Source: an uncultured virus (IMG/VR IMGVR_UViG_3300013110_000406) (lineage: Duplodnaviria; Heunggongvirae; Uroviricota; Caudoviricetes). From it: a stretch of DNA of 20,000 nucleotides. Position 1 is the stretch's first letter. Each line of letters starts with the position of its first letter. This document shows positions 8,240 to 19,971 of the stretch, in pieces. A program made the position numbers and the translations under genes. The stretch lies in the IMG/VR virus record IMGVR_UViG_3300013110_000406; one strand, given 5' to 3'. The notes under the pieces are model-generated. The model searched no databases, had not been told where the DNA came from, and was given only the letters and a program-made list of their open reading frames with translations.

Positions 8240-9211
8240 ATGTCTTTTGATAAGTGGCGTGAGTTTTTAGCGGAAGCTCCCCGGCGCGGTAGTCCTGCCG
8301 GGATACGGCGCTCTCTAAATACCCTGTTAAACACAGGACCACATAGCGATGGAAGTCCGTATAAAGATGAAGATGAGCATCTCAAAGGAAAAAAGAATCG
8401 CAATCAAATATCCGCGCCACCGGGTGCGCCGGGTGGGGGCAGCATTGGTGCATCGGGCCCTGCGTTAGAAGAAGAGGTGGAAGAAGAAACCTTTGAGATG
8501 CAGCCGGAACTTCAGCCGGAGATTTGGATAGATAATCAGATATGGCCTGAAGTACGCAAACGCTTTTTAGAAATCGTGGAAGATTTTCTAGACGGCCTAG
8601 ACCTTAATGTTCCAATTGAAGACGTGCGACTAACGGGATCGCTAGCGAACTATAACTGGTCTAAGTATTCGGATGCCGATCTGCATATCGTTGTAGACTT
8701 TAGCGAAATAGATGAAGATATTGAGCTAGTCAAAGCTTTTTTCGACGCAGCCCGGGCCCGATGGAACGACCACCATCAGATTAATGTTTATGGGTTTGAA
8801 GTGGAACTATACGTAGAAAACGTCGGGGATATTCATCATTCATCTGGTGTGTATTCGGTCGACCAGAACAAATGGATTATTGAGCCTACTCCGCGAGATG
8901 TAGAAATTGATTTTATTACTGCTCGCAAGAAAAGCGATGATATTGAAACGCAAGTGAACTTAGTAGAACGTATATTGCGTAATGGAAACACGCAAAGCGC
9001 CCTCAAGATTATAGAGCGCATTAAACACAAAATCCGTCGTATGCGACAAGCGGGACTGGATAGCCCCCAAAGAGAATTTTCACCAGAGAACATAGCTTTT
9101 AAAATATTGCGTCGTAACGGAACTTTAGAGCGGTTAAGCGGGCTGAAGCGCAATGCATACGACACCCAAATGTCACTCCCCGAGGAAGTCGATGAAGTTT
9201 CAAGCGATTAA
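8240..9211 (+). CDS. Pol-beta superfamily nucleotidyltransferase
   Basis: hGS...DxD signature LTGSLANYNWSKYSDADLHIVVD plus a third acidic strand FEVELYVE; helical C-terminal region. Confidence 0.8.
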   Translation: MSFDKWREFLAEAPRRGSPAGIRRSLNTLLNTGPHSDGSPYKDEDEHLKGKKNRNQISAPPGAPGGGSIGASGPALEEEVEEETFEMQPELQPEIWIDNQIWPEVRKRFLEIVEDFLDGLDLNVPIEDVRLTGSLANYNWSKYSDADLHIVVDFSEIDEDIELVKAFFDAARARWNDHHQINVYGFEVELYVENVGDIHHSSGVYSVDQNKWIIEPTPRDVEIDFITARKKSDDIETQVNLVERILRNGNTQSALKIIERIKHKIRRMRQAGLDSPQREFSPENIAFKILRRNGTLERLSGLKRNAYDTQMSLPEEVDEVSSD

Positions 9212-11377: not shown

Positions 11378-11647
11378 GTGGCAACTACTCACATTCCAGT
11401 CTACAAAATCGGGGATCTTGTAAAGTGTATTTATGATCTATTCGATCACTACCAGTATTTCTGGGATCAAGAGCCCGCAAGTGGCTATCCTTTCCACGGG
11501 ATTATCATAGATATCCAAGACAATATGCTGATGGACGAAGAGGTTCACGAATACGGTTATGAGAAACTTTATATTGTTCGCTGTTTCGATGGACACGTCA
11601 GATTTTTTGCTCACTGGGAAATGCGGCTCGTGTCAACATCTTCTTGA
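11378..11647 (+). CDS. small KOW/SH3-like 'GDLV' family protein
   Basis: YKIGDLVKC...GIIIDI...MRLVS. Confidence 0.65.
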   Translation: MATTHIPVYKIGDLVKCIYDLFDHYQYFWDQEPASGYPFHGIIIDIQDNMLMDEEVHEYGYEKLYIVRCFDGHVRFFAHWEMRLVSTSS

Positions 11648-11687
11648 CAACTTTGTGGTTGACACCGGTATTAGAAGATGCTATATT
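11633..11687 (+). promoter_or_regulatory. triple-box sigma70 promoter cassette
   Basis: TCAACA-5-TTGACA-9-TTGACA-17-TATATT. Confidence 0.8.
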
Positions 11688-11695
11688 AAGAACAT

Positions 11696-11783
11696 GGCCG
11701 AGTGGTGGAATAGGTAGACACACCGGACTTAAAATCCGTTGATCATTATGATCGTGAGGGTTCAAGTCCCTCCTCGGCTACCA
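11696..11783 (+). tRNA. trnL: tRNA-Leu(UAA)
   Basis: Acceptor GGCCGAG/CTCGGCT, anticodon loop CTTAAAA, long variable arm GATCATTATGATC, GGTTCAAG T-loop, encoded CCA. Confidence 0.95.
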
Positions 11784-11784
11784 C

Positions 11785-11839
11785 CTTACATCTTCTTGAC
11801 AACTTTTGGCTTGACCACACAAACTGGGCATGCTATATT
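11785..11839 (+). promoter_or_regulatory. triple-box sigma70 promoter cassette
   Basis: CTTACA-5-TTGACA-9-TTGACC-17-TATATT. Confidence 0.8.
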
Positions 11840-11896
11840 ATGAACACTGACCACATTAACATCTTCACCGACGAAGAAATCAACAAGGAGCTACGG

Positions 11897-12281: not shown

Positions 12282-12503
12282 ATGATGTTTGAAGCAGGCG
12301 AAAAAGTTATTGTAATGGCAGGCAGTGTTCATTCTCCGTCCTATCTACAGGGCGAGAGCGGAATGATCCTTGAAGTATCGGGATCATCTGATTATGTACC
12401 TGAACATTATACTATTAAGTTTGAGAAAGAGACTCATATTCTTTATGGGTCCGAACTACGGAGAGAAGAAAGTGAACAAGACGTGACGTATGAACTAAAA
12501 TAA
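12282..12503 (+). CDS. small KOW/SH3-like protein
   Basis: MMFEAGEKVIV...GMILEV...YTIKF...ELR; GAGGAGG SD. Confidence 0.6.
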   Translation: MMFEAGEKVIVMAGSVHSPSYLQGESGMILEVSGSSDYVPEHYTIKFEKETHILYGSELRREESEQDVTYELK

Positions 12504-12509
12504 GTGGTT

Positions 12510-12664
12510 GGCCCCTGGAGTAATACTTAAGGACATTCGGGTTCAATGTCTACAATGAACCTTGTACCCATCTGGTGAGGTGAAACCTGCGAGGGTAATG
12601 CAGGAGTGGAAAGTAGGCTAACGAGTGGAAGACGCGGTGAAGACAGCGTTCCTCTCCAGGGGCC
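12510..12664 (+). ncRNA. candidate structured non-coding RNA (unassigned)
   Basis: Intergenic, closed by perfect 11-bp GGCCCCTGGAG/CTCCAGGGGCC with several internal helices. Confidence 0.6.
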
Positions 12665-12709
12665 TTTACATTGATTTGACTTGACAAAGAGAAGAAAATG
12701 AGATATATT
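12665..12709 (+). promoter_or_regulatory. sigma70 promoter cassette (degenerate copy)
   Basis: TTTACA, then TTGACA(12681)-17-TATATT. Confidence 0.75.
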
Positions 12710-12715
12710 ATACAT

Positions 12716-12922
12716 ATGAAAAAGGGTGACGTAGTTAAGTTTGTTTCTCCCCCAGGACTTCACCACTTGGATTCGGTGATGAACTGGAAACAGCAGAGTC
12801 CTGGTTTGGTCGTGGGGAGCAAAGACACTTCTCTCAAGAAGCGGTCTTATGAAGTGCTGTGGAAGAACGGCGAAAGAACTTTTGAATGGGAATCATATTT
12901 GGAGATTATTAGTAAAGCATGA
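12716..12922 (+). CDS. small KOW/SH3-like 'GDLV' family protein (probably leaderless)
   Basis: MKKGDVVKF...GLVVG...YEVLW...LEIISKA. Confidence 0.7.
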   Translation: MKKGDVVKFVSPPGLHHLDSVMNWKQQSPGLVVGSKDTSLKKRSYEVLWKNGERTFEWESYLEIISKA

Positions 12923-13098
12923 TTTATACAGTTATTTATACAGATTACAAAAACGATTTGAAGTCCGAGGTAACGGATGGTCCGATGGACCGACCCGAAG
13001 CCTGGAAGGAAATGAAACGAGAATACGGCACAGTGCTGGCAATGGTGCCTGGGAGTCATCCCGTGTATACCAGCGGCTCAATGGAGCGAAAAGATTAG
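12919..13098 (+). CDS. hypothetical protein (59 aa, not in ORF track)
   Basis: ATGA overlap; MIYTVIYTDYKNDLKSEV...AMVPGSHPVYTSGSMERKD. Confidence 0.55.
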   Translation: MIYTVIYTDYKNDLKSEVTDGPMDRPEAWKEMKREYGTVLAMVPGSHPVYTSGSMERKD

Positions 13099-13158: not shown

Positions 13159-13234
13159 GCGCCGGTAGCTCAGGGGTTAGAGCGTTGTTCTTATAAAGCA
13201 AATGTCGGTGGTTCAAGTCCACCCCGGCGTACCA
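13159..13234 (+). tRNA. trnI: tRNA-Ile(UAU)
   Basis: Acceptor GCGCCGG/CCGGCGT, anticodon arm TTGTT-CTTATAA-AGCAA, GGTTCAAG, CCA. Confidence 0.92.
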
Positions 13235-14104: not shown

Positions 14105-14301
14105 TGAGCCCAGGCAACCTTGTAATGATTAAGCGTGCTGCTATCGGCGTGCCTGCTGGCACCCTCGCACTATGCTTGAAGCGCGACGAGAAGCGCGGAG
14201 ATTATGACGAAGGCCATGAGATTTGGACAGTCCAGCTTATGCATGGGCAGCTACGGGGCATTGAGCGCCGGTATCTTGATATTGATTTGGAGATATTGTG
14301 A
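14104..14301 (+). CDS. small KOW/SH3-like 'GDLV' family protein
   Basis: MSPGNLVMIK...WTVQL...DLEIL. Confidence 0.65.
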   Translation: MSPGNLVMIKRAAIGVPAGTLALCLKRDEKRGDYDEGHEIWTVQLMHGQLRGIERRYLDIDLEIL

Positions 14302-14501
14302 AAGTCGGTGACTTGGTAAAGAGCGCAGATCGTTTAGTTGGCAATCGGAATCGCATGCGCCTGGGAGTGATCGTAGAGGTAGACCCCGATAAAGCCGATC
14401 AACCGGGTTGTTTCGGGAGTTGTTTTATCCAGTGGATAGGCGATGCAGATTGGACATTCGTGTACGAAGAAGATATTGAGGTAATCAATGAAGGTCGGTG
14501 A
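14298..14501 (+). CDS. MKVGDLV-family small protein, array unit 1
   Basis: MKVGDLVK...GVIVEV...IQW...IEVINEGR. Confidence 0.8.
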   Translation: MKVGDLVKSADRLVGNRNRMRLGVIVEVDPDKADQPGCFGSCFIQWIGDADWTFVYEEDIEVINEGR

Positions 14502-14676
14502 TTTAGTAAGAAACCTTAACTCGGAAAGCGGTCTGCTTGGCGTTATTGTTTACTGGACAGATACCAAATGGCCCGACAACAATCAATGTACGAACCATCC
14601 AGTCGTACACTGGAACGACGGGCGCACAAGTTGGATTATGGCGCATCGTGTGGAGATTATAAATGCAAATCGGTGA
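14488..14676 (+). CDS. MKVGDLV-family small protein, array unit 2
   Basis: MKVGDLVR...GVIV...VHW...VEIINANR. Confidence 0.8.
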   Translation: MKVGDLVRNLNSESGLLGVIVYWTDTKWPDNNQCTNHPVVHWNDGRTSWIMAHRVEIINANR

Positions 14677-14887
14677 CATTGTAAGGGTACATTGGGGCGC
14701 ATGCGACTGGTCCGGCACGGAAGGTGTTGACTGGGGATATGGCGTTGGCGTTGTGACGGGCGATATTGTGTGGTGGGAGAACACACGGCGTCTTGTGTCT
14801 CCGTGCGGCGACGTAGAGATTCTATTTCGCGGCGAGCGCGTAAACTATAACCTTGGTCGGCTGGAGATTGTAAATGAAAGTCGGTGA
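14663..14887 (+). CDS. MKVGDLV-family small protein, array unit 3
   Basis: MQIGDIVR...GVVTG...LEIVNESR. Confidence 0.8.
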   Translation: MQIGDIVRVHWGACDWSGTEGVDWGYGVGVVTGDIVWWENTRRLVSPCGDVEILFRGERVNYNLGRLEIVNESR

Positions 14888-15056
14888 CTTGGTGAGATAT
14901 AAAGATTCACTCCGCGATGACGTGGGAGTTGTAATGAAAATACAAACCGAGGGATCGTGTTCAATCTTTGGTCACACAGTGATCGTACAGACAACCGATG
15001 GGATTTGCCGTCAATATACCGAAAAGAATCTGGAGATTTTAAATGCAAGTCGGTGA
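14874..15056 (+). CDS. MKVGDLV-family small protein, array unit 4
   Basis: MKVGDLVR...GVVMKI...LEILNASR. Confidence 0.8.
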   Translation: MKVGDLVRYKDSLRDDVGVVMKIQTEGSCSIFGHTVIVQTTDGICRQYTEKNLEILNASR

Positions 15057-15231
15057 CTTGGTAAAGATTGTGCAGTCAGCAATAGATCCGCTCAAGACTC
15101 CATTTTTGGAACAGGTCGGTGTGATTGTTAGAAAGACTACACTTGAATCAGAACAAAACGATTGGTATGATGTATTAACGCGGGATAGGATTCACTCATT
15201 CCGCGCAGACTATTTGGAGAAGATAAAATGA
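15043..15231 (+). CDS. MKVGDLV-family small protein, array unit 5
   Basis: MQVGDLVK...GVIVR...YDVL...LEKIK. Confidence 0.8.
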   Translation: MQVGDLVKIVQSAIDPLKTPFLEQVGVIVRKTTLESEQNDWYDVLTRDRIHSFRADYLEKIK

Positions 15232-15491
15232 AAGCAGGAGATTTAGTAACACTTTCGGCGTATGCGAATGGGCTTCAAGCCCTCCAGCGGTGGTCAGACC
15301 GCTTCCGCCAATACCATAAAAAGCAGCCCCTGGTGGGATTGGTGATTAAAATCTCCCCGTCTCGGTGGGCGTGGGAAGGGATGCAGTATGAAGTACGATG
15401 GATGGAGCCGCATGGGCCGAAAGGTCGGGAGGGTAACTACGGCGTACACACATTCAACCGCAAAGATTTGAAGTTTGTGAGTCGAGGATAG
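15228..15491 (+). CDS. MKVGDLV-family small protein, array unit 6
   Basis: MKAGDLVT...GLVIKI...YEVRW...LKFVSRG. Confidence 0.8.
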   Translation: MKAGDLVTLSAYANGLQALQRWSDRFRQYHKKQPLVGLVIKISPSRWAWEGMQYEVRWMEPHGPKGREGNYGVHTFNRKDLKFVSRG

Positions 15492-15868
15492 TGGAAAATC
15501 TCACTCCAGAAAATTTTTTCCTGGTATTCCAGGTATTTATCAAAGTTTTAGTTATATGGAGTCCCGTATTGTTTGGGACGTGGCTTTATATGTATTACAC
15601 GCGCCCTAAAAAGCGCACAACCCAACGCAACAAAGGAAAGAAGATAATGAGAGCAGGCGAAGTATTTGAATGGCTGGATCAGGGACCAGCGGTATTGTTG
15701 GCACCATGTAAGATTGCCGATCCTATTCCCGTAGAAAAGAAGACCGAGTTTCTAAAAGATCCCGAAGGATTCTTGAAGGCATGGCCCAGCGAACAAGGCT
15801 GGACTATTAAACTTCTGGAAAGCGGCGACATCATCGACGTGCATGAAGACACGTTGACATACTCTTGA
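15491..15868 (+). CDS. hypothetical protein: N-terminal TM segment fused in frame to a MRAGEV... module (alternative start 15647)
   Basis: GAGGA SD; hydrophobic N-terminus; internal MRAGEVFEW resembles the family start. Confidence 0.6.
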   Translation: MENLTPENFFLVFQVFIKVLVIWSPVLFGTWLYMYYTRPKKRTTQRNKGKKIMRAGEVFEWLDQGPAVLLAPCKIADPIPVEKKTEFLKDPEGFLKAWPSEQGWTIKLLESGDIIDVHEDTLTYS

Positions 15869-15908
15869 CAAGATTAACCTTGACTTACCGTCGCTGGCAT
15901 GGTATATT
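15854..15908 (+). promoter_or_regulatory. triple-box sigma70 promoter cassette
   Basis: TTGACA-5-TTGACA-9-TTGACT-17-TATATT. Confidence 0.85.
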
Positions 15909-15914
15909 ATTAGC

Positions 15915-16046
15915 ATGAAAACGAAGAAAGTACCCAAGGCTCGTAACTGGCTCGCTGTCCATGCGTGGAATCGCAAGGGTGGAGCTATCCCTAACAAGAA
16001 GAAAGTTATGAATAAGAAGGCATGCAGGAAGAAGGTGCGAGCATGA
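15915..16046 (+). CDS. 43-aa very basic peptide (probably leaderless; not in ORF track)
   Basis: MKTKKVPKARNWLAVHAWNRKGGAIPNKKKVMNKKACRKKVRA; ATG 7 nt after -10; ATGA overlap. Confidence 0.65.
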   Translation: MKTKKVPKARNWLAVHAWNRKGGAIPNKKKVMNKKACRKKVRA

Positions 16047-16243
16047 GCAAATATGATTATGTTCCGTTTTTTGAGCGCGGCGATCTGGTAGAGATCAGCT
16101 TTGGCTATGGAGCTAAGAGCCTGGGCCTTTTTATGCATTATGAAGGATGGGCTGACGATCTTCGCGCTAAGGTTTTTTGGGATGGTCAAGACCTTTCCAC
16201 TCCGGTCGTGCAACTTACACTAATCAAGAGAGCAGCAGAATGA
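16043..16243 (+). CDS. small KOW/SH3-like 'GDLV' family protein
   Basis: FERGDLVEI...GLFM...AKVFW...LTLIK. Confidence 0.7.
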   Translation: MSKYDYVPFFERGDLVEISFGYGAKSLGLFMHYEGWADDLRAKVFWDGQDLSTPVVQLTLIKRAAE

Positions 16244-16539
16244 ATATCTGGGTATTTATGGGACGCTGCGAAGGGGATCTATTCGCCACCACACACCTAA
16301 CGGAGAAAGGCGCAGTCCTGGCGGCACTGGCGGATATTCTGGAATATCTGGGAATCGACAGCGACGAAGATGCGCGATCTAACCCCGAAGATGCCGATGC
16401 CCTCTTGCCCTGGGATTACGACGAGCTTAAAACATTTCCCACCACGCAGCTATGGGAAGTCTACGCAGGATATCGTGAACATTTGTGGGATGATTTTTCG
16501 TATGAGATTGACATTCATCAGACACAGGTGACAGGATGA
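16240..16539 (+). CDS. hypothetical acidic protein
   Basis: ATGA overlaps on both ends. Confidence 0.65.
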   Translation: MNIWVFMGRCEGDLFATTHLTEKGAVLAALADILEYLGIDSDEDARSNPEDADALLPWDYDELKTFPTTQLWEVYAGYREHLWDDFSYEIDIHQTQVTG

Positions 16540-16823
16540 AACTGGTTAGAGATAACATTCCCAAGATCATTAATGACTCGGGACGCGAATGTAAATATCA
16601 TAAAGCTGACGAAGCTGAACATATAGCACGCCTCAAGGATAAAATGGAGGAGGAGCTAACAGAGTTTATGCTTGAGCCATCTTGTGAAGAAGCAGCCGAC
16701 ATGCTGGAAGTGGTGCGCGGTTTGTGTCACATTCACGGCATTGATTTTATGGATGCGCTGGATGCAGCCAACAATAAACATGCTCGACGTGGTGGCTTCG
16801 ATGGAGGGATCGTATTGTGGTAA
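16536..16823 (+). CDS. MazG-like / PRA-PH-like nucleoside triphosphate pyrophosphohydrolase
   Basis: KLVRDNIPKII...KMEEELTEF...EEAADMLEV...K...RGGF signature. Confidence 0.85.
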   Translation: MKLVRDNIPKIINDSGRECKYHKADEAEHIARLKDKMEEELTEFMLEPSCEEAADMLEVVRGLCHIHGIDFMDALDAANNKHARRGGFDGGIVLW

Positions 16824-17038
16824 AAGATACACTGCTGCAAGTCGGTGACTTGATAAGACATAAAACTTTGGGACACACCGGGTTGATTCTTCAAAGCGAT
16901 CCGCGTTCCCTATGCAGTGAAATGATCCCAAGCTATTTTTTGATTGTGTGGAGCGATTGGCCTCGACTGCCCCAAGCAGATAACCAGACGTGGGCACTTG
17001 CAGATGATATAGAGGTGATTAATGCTGCAAGTAGGTGA
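16817..17038 (+). CDS. MKVGDLV-family small protein
   Basis: LQVGDLIRH...GLIL...IVW...IEVINAASR; GGAGG SD. Confidence 0.75.
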   Translation: MVKDTLLQVGDLIRHKTLGHTGLILQSDPRSLCSEMIPSYFLIVWSDWPRLPQADNQTWALADDIEVINAASR

Positions 17039-17270
17039 TATCGTTAAGTTTTTTGACTATGACTATGCCGCATTTCACCGCGATACGTCTGGTGAATGTT
17101 GGCGCATCGGTGTTGTGTCGGAGATCCGTCACGAGGTGTGGGATGAAGATTGGGATCCCGCATGTCTTCCGCTTGTCGTTGTCGTTCACGACGGACACAG
17201 CCAACCCCTCGTGATGCCAAACGAAAAAAATATCGGAACCTGGGTGGAGCTTATAAGTGCCCGTAAGTGA
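17022..17270 (+). CDS. MKVGDLV-family small protein
   Basis: MLQVGDIVKF...GVVSEI...VELISARK. Confidence 0.75.
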   Translation: MLQVGDIVKFFDYDYAAFHRDTSGECWRIGVVSEIRHEVWDEDWDPACLPLVVVVHDGHSQPLVMPNEKNIGTWVELISARK

Positions 17271-17349
17271 TCGAATGTGGGTTATTGTTTCATTGGCGTT
17301 GGCCGTGACGGTGTGGTATTATGTGCGCTTCGGGGGAGGGGCATTATGA
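17257..17349 (+). CDS. 30-aa single-TM peptide (not in ORF track)
   Basis: GGAG SD, GTG start with 14-nt overlap; MPVSDRMWVIVSLALAVTVWYYVRFGGGAL; ATGA overlap downstream. Confidence 0.5.
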   Translation: MPVSDRMWVIVSLALAVTVWYYVRFGGGAL

Positions 17350-17555
17350 AGGTCGGTGATTTGGTGCGACAGCGCGACGTTGGCATGCCTCGGCAGAATC
17401 GGAGAGTGGGCGTGGTGCGCGAGATCCGAAAGAAGGATCACGCACGCTGGAAGGGTGATGGCTGGGATTCAGTCAGAGTATATTGGGGCGACAACCAGCG
17501 CATGAACGAGCGGTGGACTGTGCGCGGGTCATTAGAAGTTATTGATGGCGCTTGA
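17346..17555 (+). CDS. MKVGDLV-family small protein
   Basis: GGAGG SD; MKVGDLVRQ...GVVREI...VRVYW...LEVIDGA. Confidence 0.8.
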   Translation: MKVGDLVRQRDVGMPRQNRRVGVVREIRKKDHARWKGDGWDSVRVYWGDNQRMNERWTVRGSLEVIDGA

Positions 17556-17606
17556 CATTCTCTTTACAACATTAACCTTGACTACACCCCATTTACATGC
17601 TATATT
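17552..17606 (+). promoter_or_regulatory. triple-box sigma70 promoter cassette
   Basis: TTGACA-5-TTTACA-9-TTGACT-17-TATATT, followed by ATAGGGGCAATCAGGAG leader. Confidence 0.85.
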
Positions 17607-17630
17607 ATAGGGGCAATCAGGAGAAAATAG

Positions 17631-17864
17631 ATGGCAGTTTATGAAGCAACCGTCACCCGTGTGCGCTATGTTCACACAGTTATCGAGGTAGAAGCCGATA
17701 GCCCCGAGGAGGCACGAGAACAGGCACAACAAGTTATTGATGCTGGCGTCTTTGGTCAACCAAATGTGACGCACCCTTATCCAGAACCCGTTTATCAATG
17801 GACAACGCACAACCGCGAAGGTGTGCTGGGTCACGACGAATATGAGATTGTCGACATCGCTTGA
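17631..17864 (+). CDS. hypothetical protein (DpnD/PcfM-like 'VEAxSxEEA' motif)
   Basis: IEVEADSPEEAREQA; AGGAG SD. Confidence 0.65.
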   Translation: MAVYEATVTRVRYVHTVIEVEADSPEEAREQAQQVIDAGVFGQPNVTHPYPEPVYQWTTHNREGVLGHDEYEIVDIA

Positions 17865-17915
17865 CATTTACTTTACAACTTAACGATTGACAAACCCCCT
17901 GAAAAATGGTATATT
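17861..17915 (+). promoter_or_regulatory. triple-box sigma70 promoter cassette
   Basis: TTGACA-5-TTTACA-9-TTGACA-17-TATATT, followed by ATAGGGGTAATCAAGGAG leader. Confidence 0.85.
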
Positions 17916-17942
17916 ATAGGGGTAATCAAGGAGAACACTAAC

Positions 17943-18293
17943 ATGGCCTATCTTCACAAACAAGACATCGTAATCATTCGCCAGGGCGGCAAGACCATCC
18001 AGGCTCGCGTGGTAGACATGCGTTTCCGGCGCTTTAGACGCGCCTGGAAGGACCGCAAGACCGGCGAGAACAAGTCACGCTGGAAGTCGGTGCCCTACGC
18101 AGTGTGCGAGGTATTTGCGGGGCTTCCCGTGGGGACCGAGTTTATTATTGCAGGCTACAAGCTGAAGAACGAAACCAAAGACGGCGAAAAGCTGCTGGTG
18201 CTGCGCGACAAGTATGCAGCCGAGTTTAATGGCGCGTGGGTAAACACCCTATTGGCCGAGAGCAAGAATATCCGTGCAAAGAGGAGTGCATAA
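17943..18293 (+). CDS. hypothetical basic protein
   Basis: AAGGAG SD; R/K-rich beta-type sequence. Confidence 0.7.
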   Translation: MAYLHKQDIVIIRQGGKTIQARVVDMRFRRFRRAWKDRKTGENKSRWKSVPYAVCEVFAGLPVGTEFIIAGYKLKNETKDGEKLLVLRDKYAAEFNGAWVNTLLAESKNIRAKRSA

Positions 18294-18662
18294 ATGGGTT
18301 ATCGATCACAAGTAGTATTGGCTATCGGAGAAGCATTGATTCCACAGTTTATGGTGACAATGGCTAAATGTCCCGAGGCGCGAGCTATGTGCTTTGGGGA
18401 TGCCGATCAGACGCGAGATTTCCAGGGAGAAAAGGGCAGTCTCTTTTTTGAATGGGATCATATTAAATGGTATGCCGGTTATGAAGAGGTCCAAGCCATC
18501 GAGGATTTTCTAAACTGGGCTGAAGATAAGCTGAAGATCGACGGCAAAGAGATTGATGGCGACGAGCATTTTCGTTTCGTTCGCATTGGCGAGGAATATG
18601 ATGATATTGAAACCCGTGGGTGGGGGTTTGACATTCACCCTGTTAGAAGTATTGAGTATTAA
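18294..18662 (+). CDS. conserved phage hypothetical protein (MGYRS...KWY...FVRIGEE.DD family)
   Basis: GAGGAG SD; recalled motif. Confidence 0.7.
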   Translation: MGYRSQVVLAIGEALIPQFMVTMAKCPEARAMCFGDADQTRDFQGEKGSLFFEWDHIKWYAGYEEVQAIEDFLNWAEDKLKIDGKEIDGDEHFRFVRIGEEYDDIETRGWGFDIHPVRSIEY

Positions 18663-18673
18663 GGAAGGATAAC

Positions 18674-18784
18674 ATGACAGGTATGGCAACATTCACATTT
18701 ATTTGTATTGCGACGGGATTTAGCGCGTTTGCAGTTGCAGTAAAACGAGAGATTTGTATTAAAAGAGGAAAAAATGAATACTAA
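18674..18784 (+). CDS. 36-aa hydrophobic peptide (not in ORF track)
   Basis: AAGGA SD; MTGMATFTFICIATGFSAFAVAVKREICIKRGKNEY fills the gap. Confidence 0.45.
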   Translation: MTGMATFTFICIATGFSAFAVAVKREICIKRGKNEY

Positions 18785-19022
18785 AGTATGTAAACACTGC
18801 GATGAGATTTTTAATCTTGATTCGATTGCTAAAAAAGCAGCGGGTGGAAAGATTAACGAGTGCCCCGACTGCGTTGAGGAGTTGGGCACCGAGACTGCTG
18901 TAAAATATACAGGGCTTCAGATTGAAGAAACAGGATCGTTTGCGATCAGTCGGCATGCTACAGAAGCAGACCGGCAGAAACACATGAACGACCGGCTGAA
19001 AATGGATGACTTGTCAAAATGA
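18774..19022 (+). CDS. zinc-ribbon protein
   Basis: CKHC...CPDC; GAGGA SD. Confidence 0.7.
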   Translation: MNTKVCKHCDEIFNLDSIAKKAAGGKINECPDCVEELGTETAVKYTGLQIEETGSFAISRHATEADRQKHMNDRLKMDDLSK

Positions 19023-19270
19023 AAATGACACTTGTTATTGATAGTGAAGATTTGGATGGTATTAAAGATTCATTTAAGATCATCAAGATGATGAACGATA
19101 AATATAACACGCCAGCGCGTCAGTATAATGATCGTTCATTCGGAAAGATTCGCTACATTAAACTTCTGCGTAAATACGCGAAGTTTGCGGCTGATGAAGA
19201 TTTTGACGTTGATTCGCTCAAAGCCGCTAAACGCTTTGCCGATGCGTTGTGGGCAGGCGATTTTGATTGA
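19019..19270 (+). CDS. hypothetical protein with ribosomal L7/L12 C-terminal-like motif
   Basis: KIRYIKLLR...SLKAAKRFAD resembles KIxxIKxVR...GLKEAKxxVE. Confidence 0.5.
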   Translation: MKMTLVIDSEDLDGIKDSFKIIKMMNDKYNTPARQYNDRSFGKIRYIKLLRKYAKFAADEDFDVDSLKAAKRFADALWAGDFD

Positions 19271-19321
19271 CATTTACTTGACATGATAATGATTGACAGC
19301 AACGCCTTTTCATGCTATATT
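19267..19321 (+). promoter_or_regulatory. triple-box sigma70 promoter cassette
   Basis: TTGACA-5-TTGACA-9-TTGACA-17-TATATT, followed by ATAGGGGCAAATAAGGAG leader. Confidence 0.85.
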
Positions 19322-19348
19322 ATAGGGGCAAATAAGGAGAGAACCACA

Positions 19349-19675
19349 ATGAGATTTGAGTTTACAGAAGAAGAAGTCGGCGCTTTGATCGAGGCACTCG
19401 GCGCGTGGATGGAGCAACCGAGCGAATGGGAAGGCGAGGAGTGGTTGCGACGGCAGGACATCGGCGCAGACCTTGACCTTGAGTTGCGCGAGGGGCTGGC
19501 CACTGGTGATGGAAACGTCGTCGATGATGCAGCCGAGGCTTTTATTCAGGCAGGCATCGACGCCCGCGAACAAGCTAAGGCAACATCCCGGGCCGCAACG
19601 CGCCGTGAACAAAGGCTGGCCGAACTGGCGAAAGGCACCACGGCTACCCTCGCCAACGACCCCGCAGACTGGTAG
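19349..19675 (+). CDS. hypothetical protein
   Basis: AAGGAG SD before ATG 19349. Confidence 0.7.
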   Translation: MRFEFTEEEVGALIEALGAWMEQPSEWEGEEWLRRQDIGADLDLELREGLATGDGNVVDDAAEAFIQAGIDAREQAKATSRAATRREQRLAELAKGTTATLANDPADW

Positions 19676-19681
19676 CATAAA

Positions 19682-19891
19682 ATGAAAGTCGGTGATTTGG
19701 TTAAATGGTCCTGGCACCTTGATACAGATTGGGCGACGACGCATTTTATGGGCGTCATCGTGGGCTCCAAGCTATACAAGATGGCGAATGGGCTGGATAA
19801 ATGTATCGTGCTGCAAGTATTGACCAGGAATGGCCAAACCATCCAGGTCCGAGAAGACGAAGCAACCTTAAAGTTGATCGCCGCGTCTTGA
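19682..19891 (+). CDS. MKVGDLV-family small protein
   Basis: MKVGDLVKW...GVIVG...LKLIAAS. Confidence 0.8.
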   Translation: MKVGDLVKWSWHLDTDWATTHFMGVIVGSKLYKMANGLDKCIVLQVLTRNGQTIQVREDEATLKLIAAS

Positions 19892-19942
19892 CATTCTCTT
19901 GACAACTTTCCTATTGACTCTCACCTATCCAGGTGGTATAAT
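19888..19942 (+). promoter_or_regulatory. triple-box sigma70 promoter cassette
   Basis: TTGACA-5-TTGACA-9-TTGACT-17-TATAAT. Confidence 0.85.
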
Positions 19943-19971
19943 GATGGCATATCAAGTAAGGAGATATATCA

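Follow-up and report, generated by a model that had tools for sequence, protein, structure and literature searches.

An uncatalogued double-pseudoknot RNA family in a lineage of uncultured marine T4-like phages

A gap between two tRNA genes, closed at both ends by a perfect stem, raises the question whether it holds a structured RNA, how such an RNA is folded and what it might do for the phage carrying it. The gap lies in the window, the whole stretch of 20,000 nt analysed here, which forms the final 20 kb of a virus record 128 kb long, where a Pfam scan identified T4-like phage genes (Gp23, T4 portal, gp32 and sheath). The sequencing runs containing this region are marine wherever a label exists, and no cultured relative was found in the phage collection, the best isolate capsid showing 45-47% identity. 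The RNA region of a 203-kb record, G049, is identical and the two are colinear at two checked points; as an identical copy it gives no independent support for the RNA, and it supplies the missing part of the phage genome, encoding a tmRNA and tRNA-Asn. This tmRNA (L525:10469-10890) has the tag ANNNNNFESVRLAA, near-identical to the tags of its relatives, and in G041 the tag is ANDNVEVDYALAA; the tags may hint at the host group.

Other genes of the same T4-like phage, located in L015:672-1796, L017:18695-L018:3132 and L018:3084-13221, encode a tubulin/FtsZ-like protein, Pol III alpha, two ClpP, IMPDH/GMP reductase and GroEL. G049 also harbours a large cluster of sugar-modifying genes (L526:4537-19215 and L527:220-7069) that includes two NeuB, a cytidylyltransferase and a GT29 sialyltransferase. 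In the window, positions 8240-9208 encode a 323-aa protein conserved in the clade (phrog_36119), which in many relatives precedes the tRNA region by a few kb and whose Pfam similarity to a nucleotidyltransferase-type domain (SidM_N) is below the cut-off; positions 14285-19711 hold small paralogous ORFs with a common start-codon region (repeats D2/D3). The surroundings of the gap, all on the + strand, are as follows.

11696-11783, +: tRNA-Leu(TAA), 726 nt upstream of the RNA
11811-11839, +: nearest strong sigma70-type promoter upstream, 10/12 consensus, two ORFs upstream of the RNA
12282-12503, +: small ORF of 73 aa, 6 nt between its stop codon and P1, no Pfam family
12510-12664, +: ncRNA gene of about 155 nt, subtype A (covariance model match, 35-sequence alignment, no Rfam family)
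12665-12709, +: downstream promoter cassette, TTGACA-17-TATATT, 11/12, repeat family D1/D4/D19
13159-13234, +: tRNA-Ile(TAT), 494 nt downstream of the RNA

The RNA is thus located between tRNA-Leu and tRNA-Ile, and the TAT anticodon of the latter, which is rare in tRNA-Ile among bacteria, is also present in a close relative. In agreement with a preliminary description made from the letters alone, no + strand ORF of at least 40 aa overlaps 12510-12664 (three short - strand ORFs do), and the cassette follows directly, with TTGACA at 12681 and TATATT ending at 12709. All letters quoted in that description occur in the sequence, including GGACATT at 12531, AATGTCT at 12545, GAACC at 12557, the AGG/CCT and GACGC/GCGTT arms and the 11-bp closing stem 12510-12520/12654-12664. 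This stem alone is not beyond chance, since the 128-kb contig contains 13 perfect inverted repeats of at least 11 bp with 40-400 nt spacing and the - strand also folds well (MFE z = -3.6 against shuffles, and -3.3 for the + strand). The abundance of such repeats is what would favour an element acting as DNA or an inverted repeat that arose by chance, a reading that the homologues described below effectively refute; it is covariation among them, beyond the evidence of a single sequence, that establishes the stem as real. That the element could not be matched by eye to tRNA, tmRNA, SRP, RNase P, 6S or a known ribozyme agrees with the Rfam 15 covariance models, which gave no match over 12510-12664 at E <= 5, and ARAGORN called nothing over it.

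Relatives were gathered by pattern scans, from loci around two clade marker proteins, and with covariance models and descriptor scans. After removal of identical copies (e.g. L411, L421, L481 and G049) the search revealed 39 distinct full-length relatives and 3 partial ones. The alignment comprises 35 sequences, L502, L540, L551 and L562 having been found or added afterwards, with a median pairwise identity of 48% (range 33-95%, two pairs above 90%). The window copy matches the covariance model with E 3e-35, its sequence being in the training set, and is single in its own contig. All relatives whose context could be judged lie in phage or phage-like contigs, and the readable flanks resemble this phage clade. 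Pattern scans of viral contigs returned mostly chance matches (2/11 and 2/19 real); a metagenome scan gave at least 120 matches, from which 80 loci were kept and 17 were real, and since its counts are lower bounds the family is under-sampled. One narrow pattern run over a genome collection gave one match, cellular homologues beyond that pattern being possible. The match (L504, G099:C19) lies on a 5-kb contig in a Methanosarcinales (archaeal) MAG that carries small paralogous ORFs of the type seen in the window; the contig resembles this phage clade and, to judge from its gene content, looks mis-binned. A 27-nt look-alike (G000:32845) was rejected as it sits in coding DNA, and on an unrelated viral contig met by chance (L036:1547-1859) ARAGORN calls a permuted (two-piece) tmRNA.

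When 20 homologue loci were run against Rfam, nothing was found over the RNA at E <= 10, the sole exception being an opposite-strand match of 15.6 bits; a Histone3 match in L486 scored 18.5 bits against a gathering threshold of 34. A blastn search of 50,697 phage records gave three short chance matches for the window copy and none for a minimal member. No description of the RNA family was found in the literature searched, including the available parts of PMC10690425 and of 2026 preprints, where an unnamed entry in the alignments or supplements is possible.

The covariation check on the homologues supported a folded core, which in the window copy consists of the following parts.

12510-12520, +: P1 5' strand, pairs with 12654-12664
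12521-12538, +: J1/2, variable AU-rich linker, 11-27 nt, sequence unconserved
12539-12562, +: P2 hairpin, stem 12539-12544/12557-12562, 97.6% of cells paired
12563-12604, +: variable domain, probable P3 12565-12568/12574-12577 and P4 hairpin 12586-12591/12599-12604, in a putative register
12605-12612, +: conserved junction A-R-U-N-R-A-A-R, ARUNRA in 30/31, A12612 pairing with U12556
12613-12618, +: PK1 3' strand, pairs with 12548-12553
12619-12622, +: U-R linker and PK2 5' strand (12621-12622), A12620 covarying with A12641
12623-12653, +: P5 (12627-12629/12650-12652) and P6 (12633-12635/12646-12648), 86% and 90.5% of cells paired
12636-12645, +: L6, conserved loop carrying the PK2 3' strand 12637-12638, PK2 being 95.7% paired
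12654-12664, +: P1 3' strand, pairs with 12510-12520

The refined model of 21 pairs is 92.8% paired on 35 rows (score 0.495 versus 0.206); none of 500 shuffles reaches any of five measures, and slid controls are 32-42% paired. P1 closes the RNA in 32/32 members reached by the script, with 6-23 bp and sequences that differ among lineages, and two-sided changes are found in 4 of the 6 pairs of P2, whose loop carries both the PK1 5' strand (12548-12553) and U12556. In PK1 this loop pairs with 12613-12618, just downstream of the conserved junction; at two of the PK1 pairs 5 and 6 different pair types occur, with 34/35 members paired at each, and one C-G pair is invariant. P1, P2, P5, P6 and PK1 are firm. 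The pairs are those of an RNA of the + strand, since G-U outnumbers A-C by 33:3, and this strand asymmetry, together with covarying pseudoknots and conservation down to 33% pairwise identity, leaves next to no room for a chance repeat or an element acting as DNA.

To a large extent the inner fold first proposed gave way to this model. A hairpin of GGACAUU with AAUGUCU is paired in 26.7% and 35.2% of cells over the 35 sequences, and the AGG/CCU hairpin loses one pair in two of three close relatives. GGUUC/GAACC, read at first as a pseudoknot, is a real helix (98.9% paired) but forms the plain hairpin stem P2. The letters of GAGTGGAA do occur twice, at 12604 and 12623, but the repeat is not kept across the family. 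A pseudoknot does exist, and a second one besides, but its true partners are the P2 loop and 12613-12618. What stood of the proposed discrete functional phage ncRNA is thus a conserved and pseudoknotted RNA without an Rfam family, and what fell is its inner fold.

Further contacts came from an unguided mutual-information ranking of 31 rows (L487 and three subtype-D rows, with poor 3' alignment, were left out). Four known helix pairs ranked first, followed by columns 188/211 and 74/180, with 191/207 tenth. Columns 188/211, in the window copy A12620 and A12641, are A-A in 15 rows, G-G in 14 and A-G in 2; columns 74/180, in the window copy U12556 and A12612, are U-A in 23, C-G in 6 and G-A in 2; and columns 191/207 are canonical in 31/31 (C-G 23, U-G 3, U-A 3, G-C 2) and form with their neighbours 190/208 the 2-bp PK2, which runs from L6 back to the strand just after PK1. 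As these contacts were discovered on the alignment used for scoring, they were checked in 11 sequences outside the ranking, where PK2 is canonical in 11/11 (the loop motif used for placing it favours a match), 188/211 agrees in 8/11 with A-G in the rest, and 74/180 holds in 6/9. On a tree built without the contact columns the pair changes number 6, 8 and 6, near the larger single-column count as also for PK1; the tree is poorly resolved, with too few supported branches for independent-pair tests of the three contacts to become significant. PK2 is well supported as a second pseudoknot, and the single contacts 74/180 and 188/211 are likely. A G207-C214 pair within L6 was dropped (27/35, never compensated), and no clean GNRA-loop/receptor covariation was seen to link L6 with PK1.

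These results show that one strand, 12605-12622, zips two pseudoknots together, with a single U-A/C-G pair and an A-A/G-G contact as braces, and that the peripheral arms are free to vary around a core closed by P1. The region from P2 to the junction measures about 15 to more than 100 nt, usually with a short hairpin at its end: by a strict test (3-bp stem, 4-nt loop) in 19/35 members against 2.0 in shuffles (maximum 6), and by a looser one, which is weak, in 30/35 against a mean of 21. The P4 loop is the site of the indels of close relatives, and in L366 a partial duplicate of the P1 arms lies directly 3' of the RNA.

When comparing the members, three subtypes sharing P2, PK1 and PK2 could be described: A, the window copy and most others with variants; B (L486 and L490); and D, with a simpler 3' hairpin (L491, L493, L496, L540, L551 and L562). 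Two subtypes co-occur in some genomes (A and D in G006 and G047, A and B in G035). Subtype D lies between a Fis-like HTH gene, so labelled from sequence inspection with no Pfam match, and the tmRNA gene in 6 of 12 such loci examined; the phage of the window has the Fis-like gene/tmRNA pair without subtype D. Among the clade genomes that are at least 90% complete and have the Fis-like gene, 8/9 carry an RNA copy. The sole near-complete clade genome without an RNA match (G019) also gave no tmRNA over the cut-off, G046 has the RNA and no tmRNA match, and two more distant complete genomes (G063 and G068) have a tmRNA and no RNA match. Such absences are soft, since model R2, which found no member beyond its training set, missed two subtype-D copies that were recovered by other routes. 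A tRNA is found within the available flanking DNA for 13/32 members (many loci are short), at distances from the RNA to the nearest tRNA varying from 28 to 1227 nt.

As for expression, the promoter-like site 12473-12501, from which transcription would start at P1, matches 9/12 positions, which is chance level. The promoter 11811-11839 probably drives the RNA through two ORFs. The cassette, with its extra TTGACA-like boxes, is repeated at 11620-11690, 11782-11852, 12665-12709, 15851-15921, 17549-17619, 17858-17928, 19264-19334 and 19885-19955. Expression data consisted of the contigs of four runs. A close variant is represented in RNA library X20 by a 151-nt contig whose ends lie 1 nt upstream of P1 and at 12660, so that the last 4 nt of the RNA are missing. 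As a sign of a discrete transcript this contig remains a hint only, since X20 contigs also cover the downstream 12639-12750 and 12848-12992 and those of X19, likewise an RNA run, gave no cover over the RNA; 151 nt is moreover a common record length in X20, whose cover cannot separate RNA from DNA.

The position of the RNA could suggest a cis-acting 3'-end element, either guarding the mRNA upstream of it against 3'-5' decay or insulating this mRNA from the cassette that follows. In most copies no more than 50 nt separate the start of the RNA from a stop codon, and in many the 3' end meets a TTGAC cassette, as that of tRNA-Leu does in the window, the P1 3' strand overlapping the first TTGACA box in several relatives, and in the window a terminator-like match overlaps the 3' end. 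This role is nevertheless improbable. No conserved U run follows P1, about half of 32 flanks having fewer than four T in 8 nt, and terminator-like matches are about as frequent as chance predicts (2 against 1.4 expected), for which reasons an intrinsic terminator was rejected. Furthermore, genomes hold one or two RNA copies against many cassette repeats, subtype D precedes tmRNA, and a 3' hairpin would need less tertiary conservation. The upstream genes of the members belong to many unrelated families, their identity not being fixed, which also argues against a cis role for one gene.

A riboswitch-like aptamer binding a metabolite or ion can be judged on the same ground. Aptamers resemble such RNAs in size, pseudoknots and conserved junction purines, but the RNA usually ends at the next promoter and so lies outside the 5' leader of the downstream gene, both upstream and downstream genes are unrelated between members, and no expression platform was seen, making this reading highly improbable. 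A T-box leader, which lies 5' of amino-acid genes and has the sequence UGGN in its antiterminator bulge, was rejected with UGGN after PK1 in only 14/31 and no fixed downstream gene.

The changing neighbours, the few copies per genome, the stem that closes the RNA and the conservation of its tertiary contacts suggest a discrete trans-acting molecule working by its shape, and its conservation suggests that it is functional. The company of tRNA and tmRNA genes leads us to propose a role on the translation side, the gene neighbourhood being the whole basis of this putative link. The lack of both an RNA and a tmRNA match in G019 speaks for it, whereas G046, G063 and G068, each with one of the two, and the unfixed distance to the nearest tRNA speak against it. 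As a tentative best explanation, to which we would give a little less than an even chance, we put forward a stable structured RNA that would bind a translation-side partner from the host or the phage. Such an RNA would form the last part of a unit transcribed from a host-type promoter, or share a transcript with tmRNA; processing in the AU-rich sequences flanking P1 would release it, and it would build up as phage tRNAs and tmRNA do. Invariant purines left unpaired in the junction and in L6 could then offer a rigid binding surface for a translation-side factor, with the RNA acting as a decoy or scaffold that helps translation to continue during infection.

One specific form of binding, to the tRNA elbow via a double T-loop module, has AGNN(Y)A in L6 of 32/35 members, an invariant U and near-invariant A's in the junction and the tRNA gene setting in its favour. 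According to the available passages of PMC3664808 the module requires AGNNA...UGNNA. Membership was rejected on UGNNA, present in only 19/35; both loops vary at the G of the second position and PK2 takes up part of L6, so that an elbow binder has only a slim chance of being correct. CsrA/RsmA sponge RNAs carry several GGA motifs in hairpin loops, and a sponge was rejected with GGA in L6 of 13/31, the window copy lacking it, and with the GAGTGGAA pair not being a conserved repeat. A Pfam scan of 77 + 82 ORFs of this phage, in which small ORFs were partly covered, revealed no gene for Ro60, SmpB, RtcB or reverse transcriptase as a partner, and a Y RNA (YrlA) or retron-type ncRNA was set aside for want of Ro60 and reverse transcriptase among them.

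RNAs with comparable tertiary conservation are often ribozymes, riboswitches or core parts of RNPs. A new ribozyme, with a catalytic double-pseudoknot core cutting itself or the phage transcripts that contain tRNA or tmRNA, would fit the compact fold, the invariant unpaired A/U residues and the 2-bp second knot, since a compact double-pseudoknot design with a small second knot is common to small ribozymes. The RNA also lies near tRNA and tmRNA genes, the setting of the theta (HDV-like) ribozymes of gut phages, which reportedly occur near phage tRNA genes. We regard a ribozyme as unlikely all the same: no ribozyme family in Rfam matches the window or the 20 homologue loci, and a long P1 closing both ends better fits a stable product than a self-cleaver. 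The likeness to theta ribozymes, a double pseudoknot with a 2-bp knot in a phage tRNA neighbourhood, ends at the strand order, which is unlike HDV-type folds, at the missing Rfam HDV-type match and at the fixed position at a tRNA end, which was rejected on the distances of 28-1227 nt. It is likewise doubtful, though worth stating, that the family may be a new RNA class, either a double-pseudoknot ribozyme or a ribosome/tmRNA-side effector, that has stood beside tmRNA in this T4-like lineage since early on and later, through duplication and divergence, gave rise to at least four subtypes.

Returning to the favoured stable trans-acting RNA, other orphan RNAs of phages can be compared. To our knowledge the orphan stable RNAs rnaC and rnaD of T4 (species 1 and 2) have been without an assigned function for decades. 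They are annotated as small stable RNAs of 139 and 119 nt (NC_000866) and are, like the RNA here, small non-coding RNAs in the tRNA region of a T4-like phage. Homology was rejected, as model R1 of the family gave no match at E <= 0.01 on the T4 tRNA region L313 and no tRNA-like 3' end is found: rnaC has a T-arm-like hairpin near its 3' end that the RNA here lacks, and the family has no consistent CCA end and unrelated 3' flanks. Whereas rnaC and rnaD abut tRNA-Arg, the marine family lies at a variable tRNA distance. GOLLD and ROOL are orphan, highly structured RNAs associated with phages and tRNAs but several times larger, and neither gave an Rfam match, even a local one, at E <= 5-10.

No Rfam match to raiA RNA, a family presumably contained in the library used, was found over the window or the 20 homologue loci. 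In the passages available from PMC12968392, raiA is described as a P1-closed orphan with variable arms in which a linker strand makes two adjacent pseudoknots, one of 2 canonical pairs. The RNA here has the same P1 closure, the same variable arms and one strand making two pseudoknots, a 2-bp one included, but in the raiA linker PK2 precedes PK1 and the pairing is with the P1c-P4 linker, while here PK1 comes first and PK2 reaches the terminal loop. raiA is bacterial, the word "phage" occurring 0 times in those passages, and the resemblance is one of design and not of homology.

Taken together, the broad kind, an orphan structured RNA of phages, is known, and the RNA family that this lineage of uncultured marine T4-like phages has retained is, like its fold, uncatalogued. 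With minimal members of about 125-140 nt, a covariation-backed double-pseudoknot model with named contacts and natural subtypes, the family makes structural and biochemical work possible without a cultured phage.
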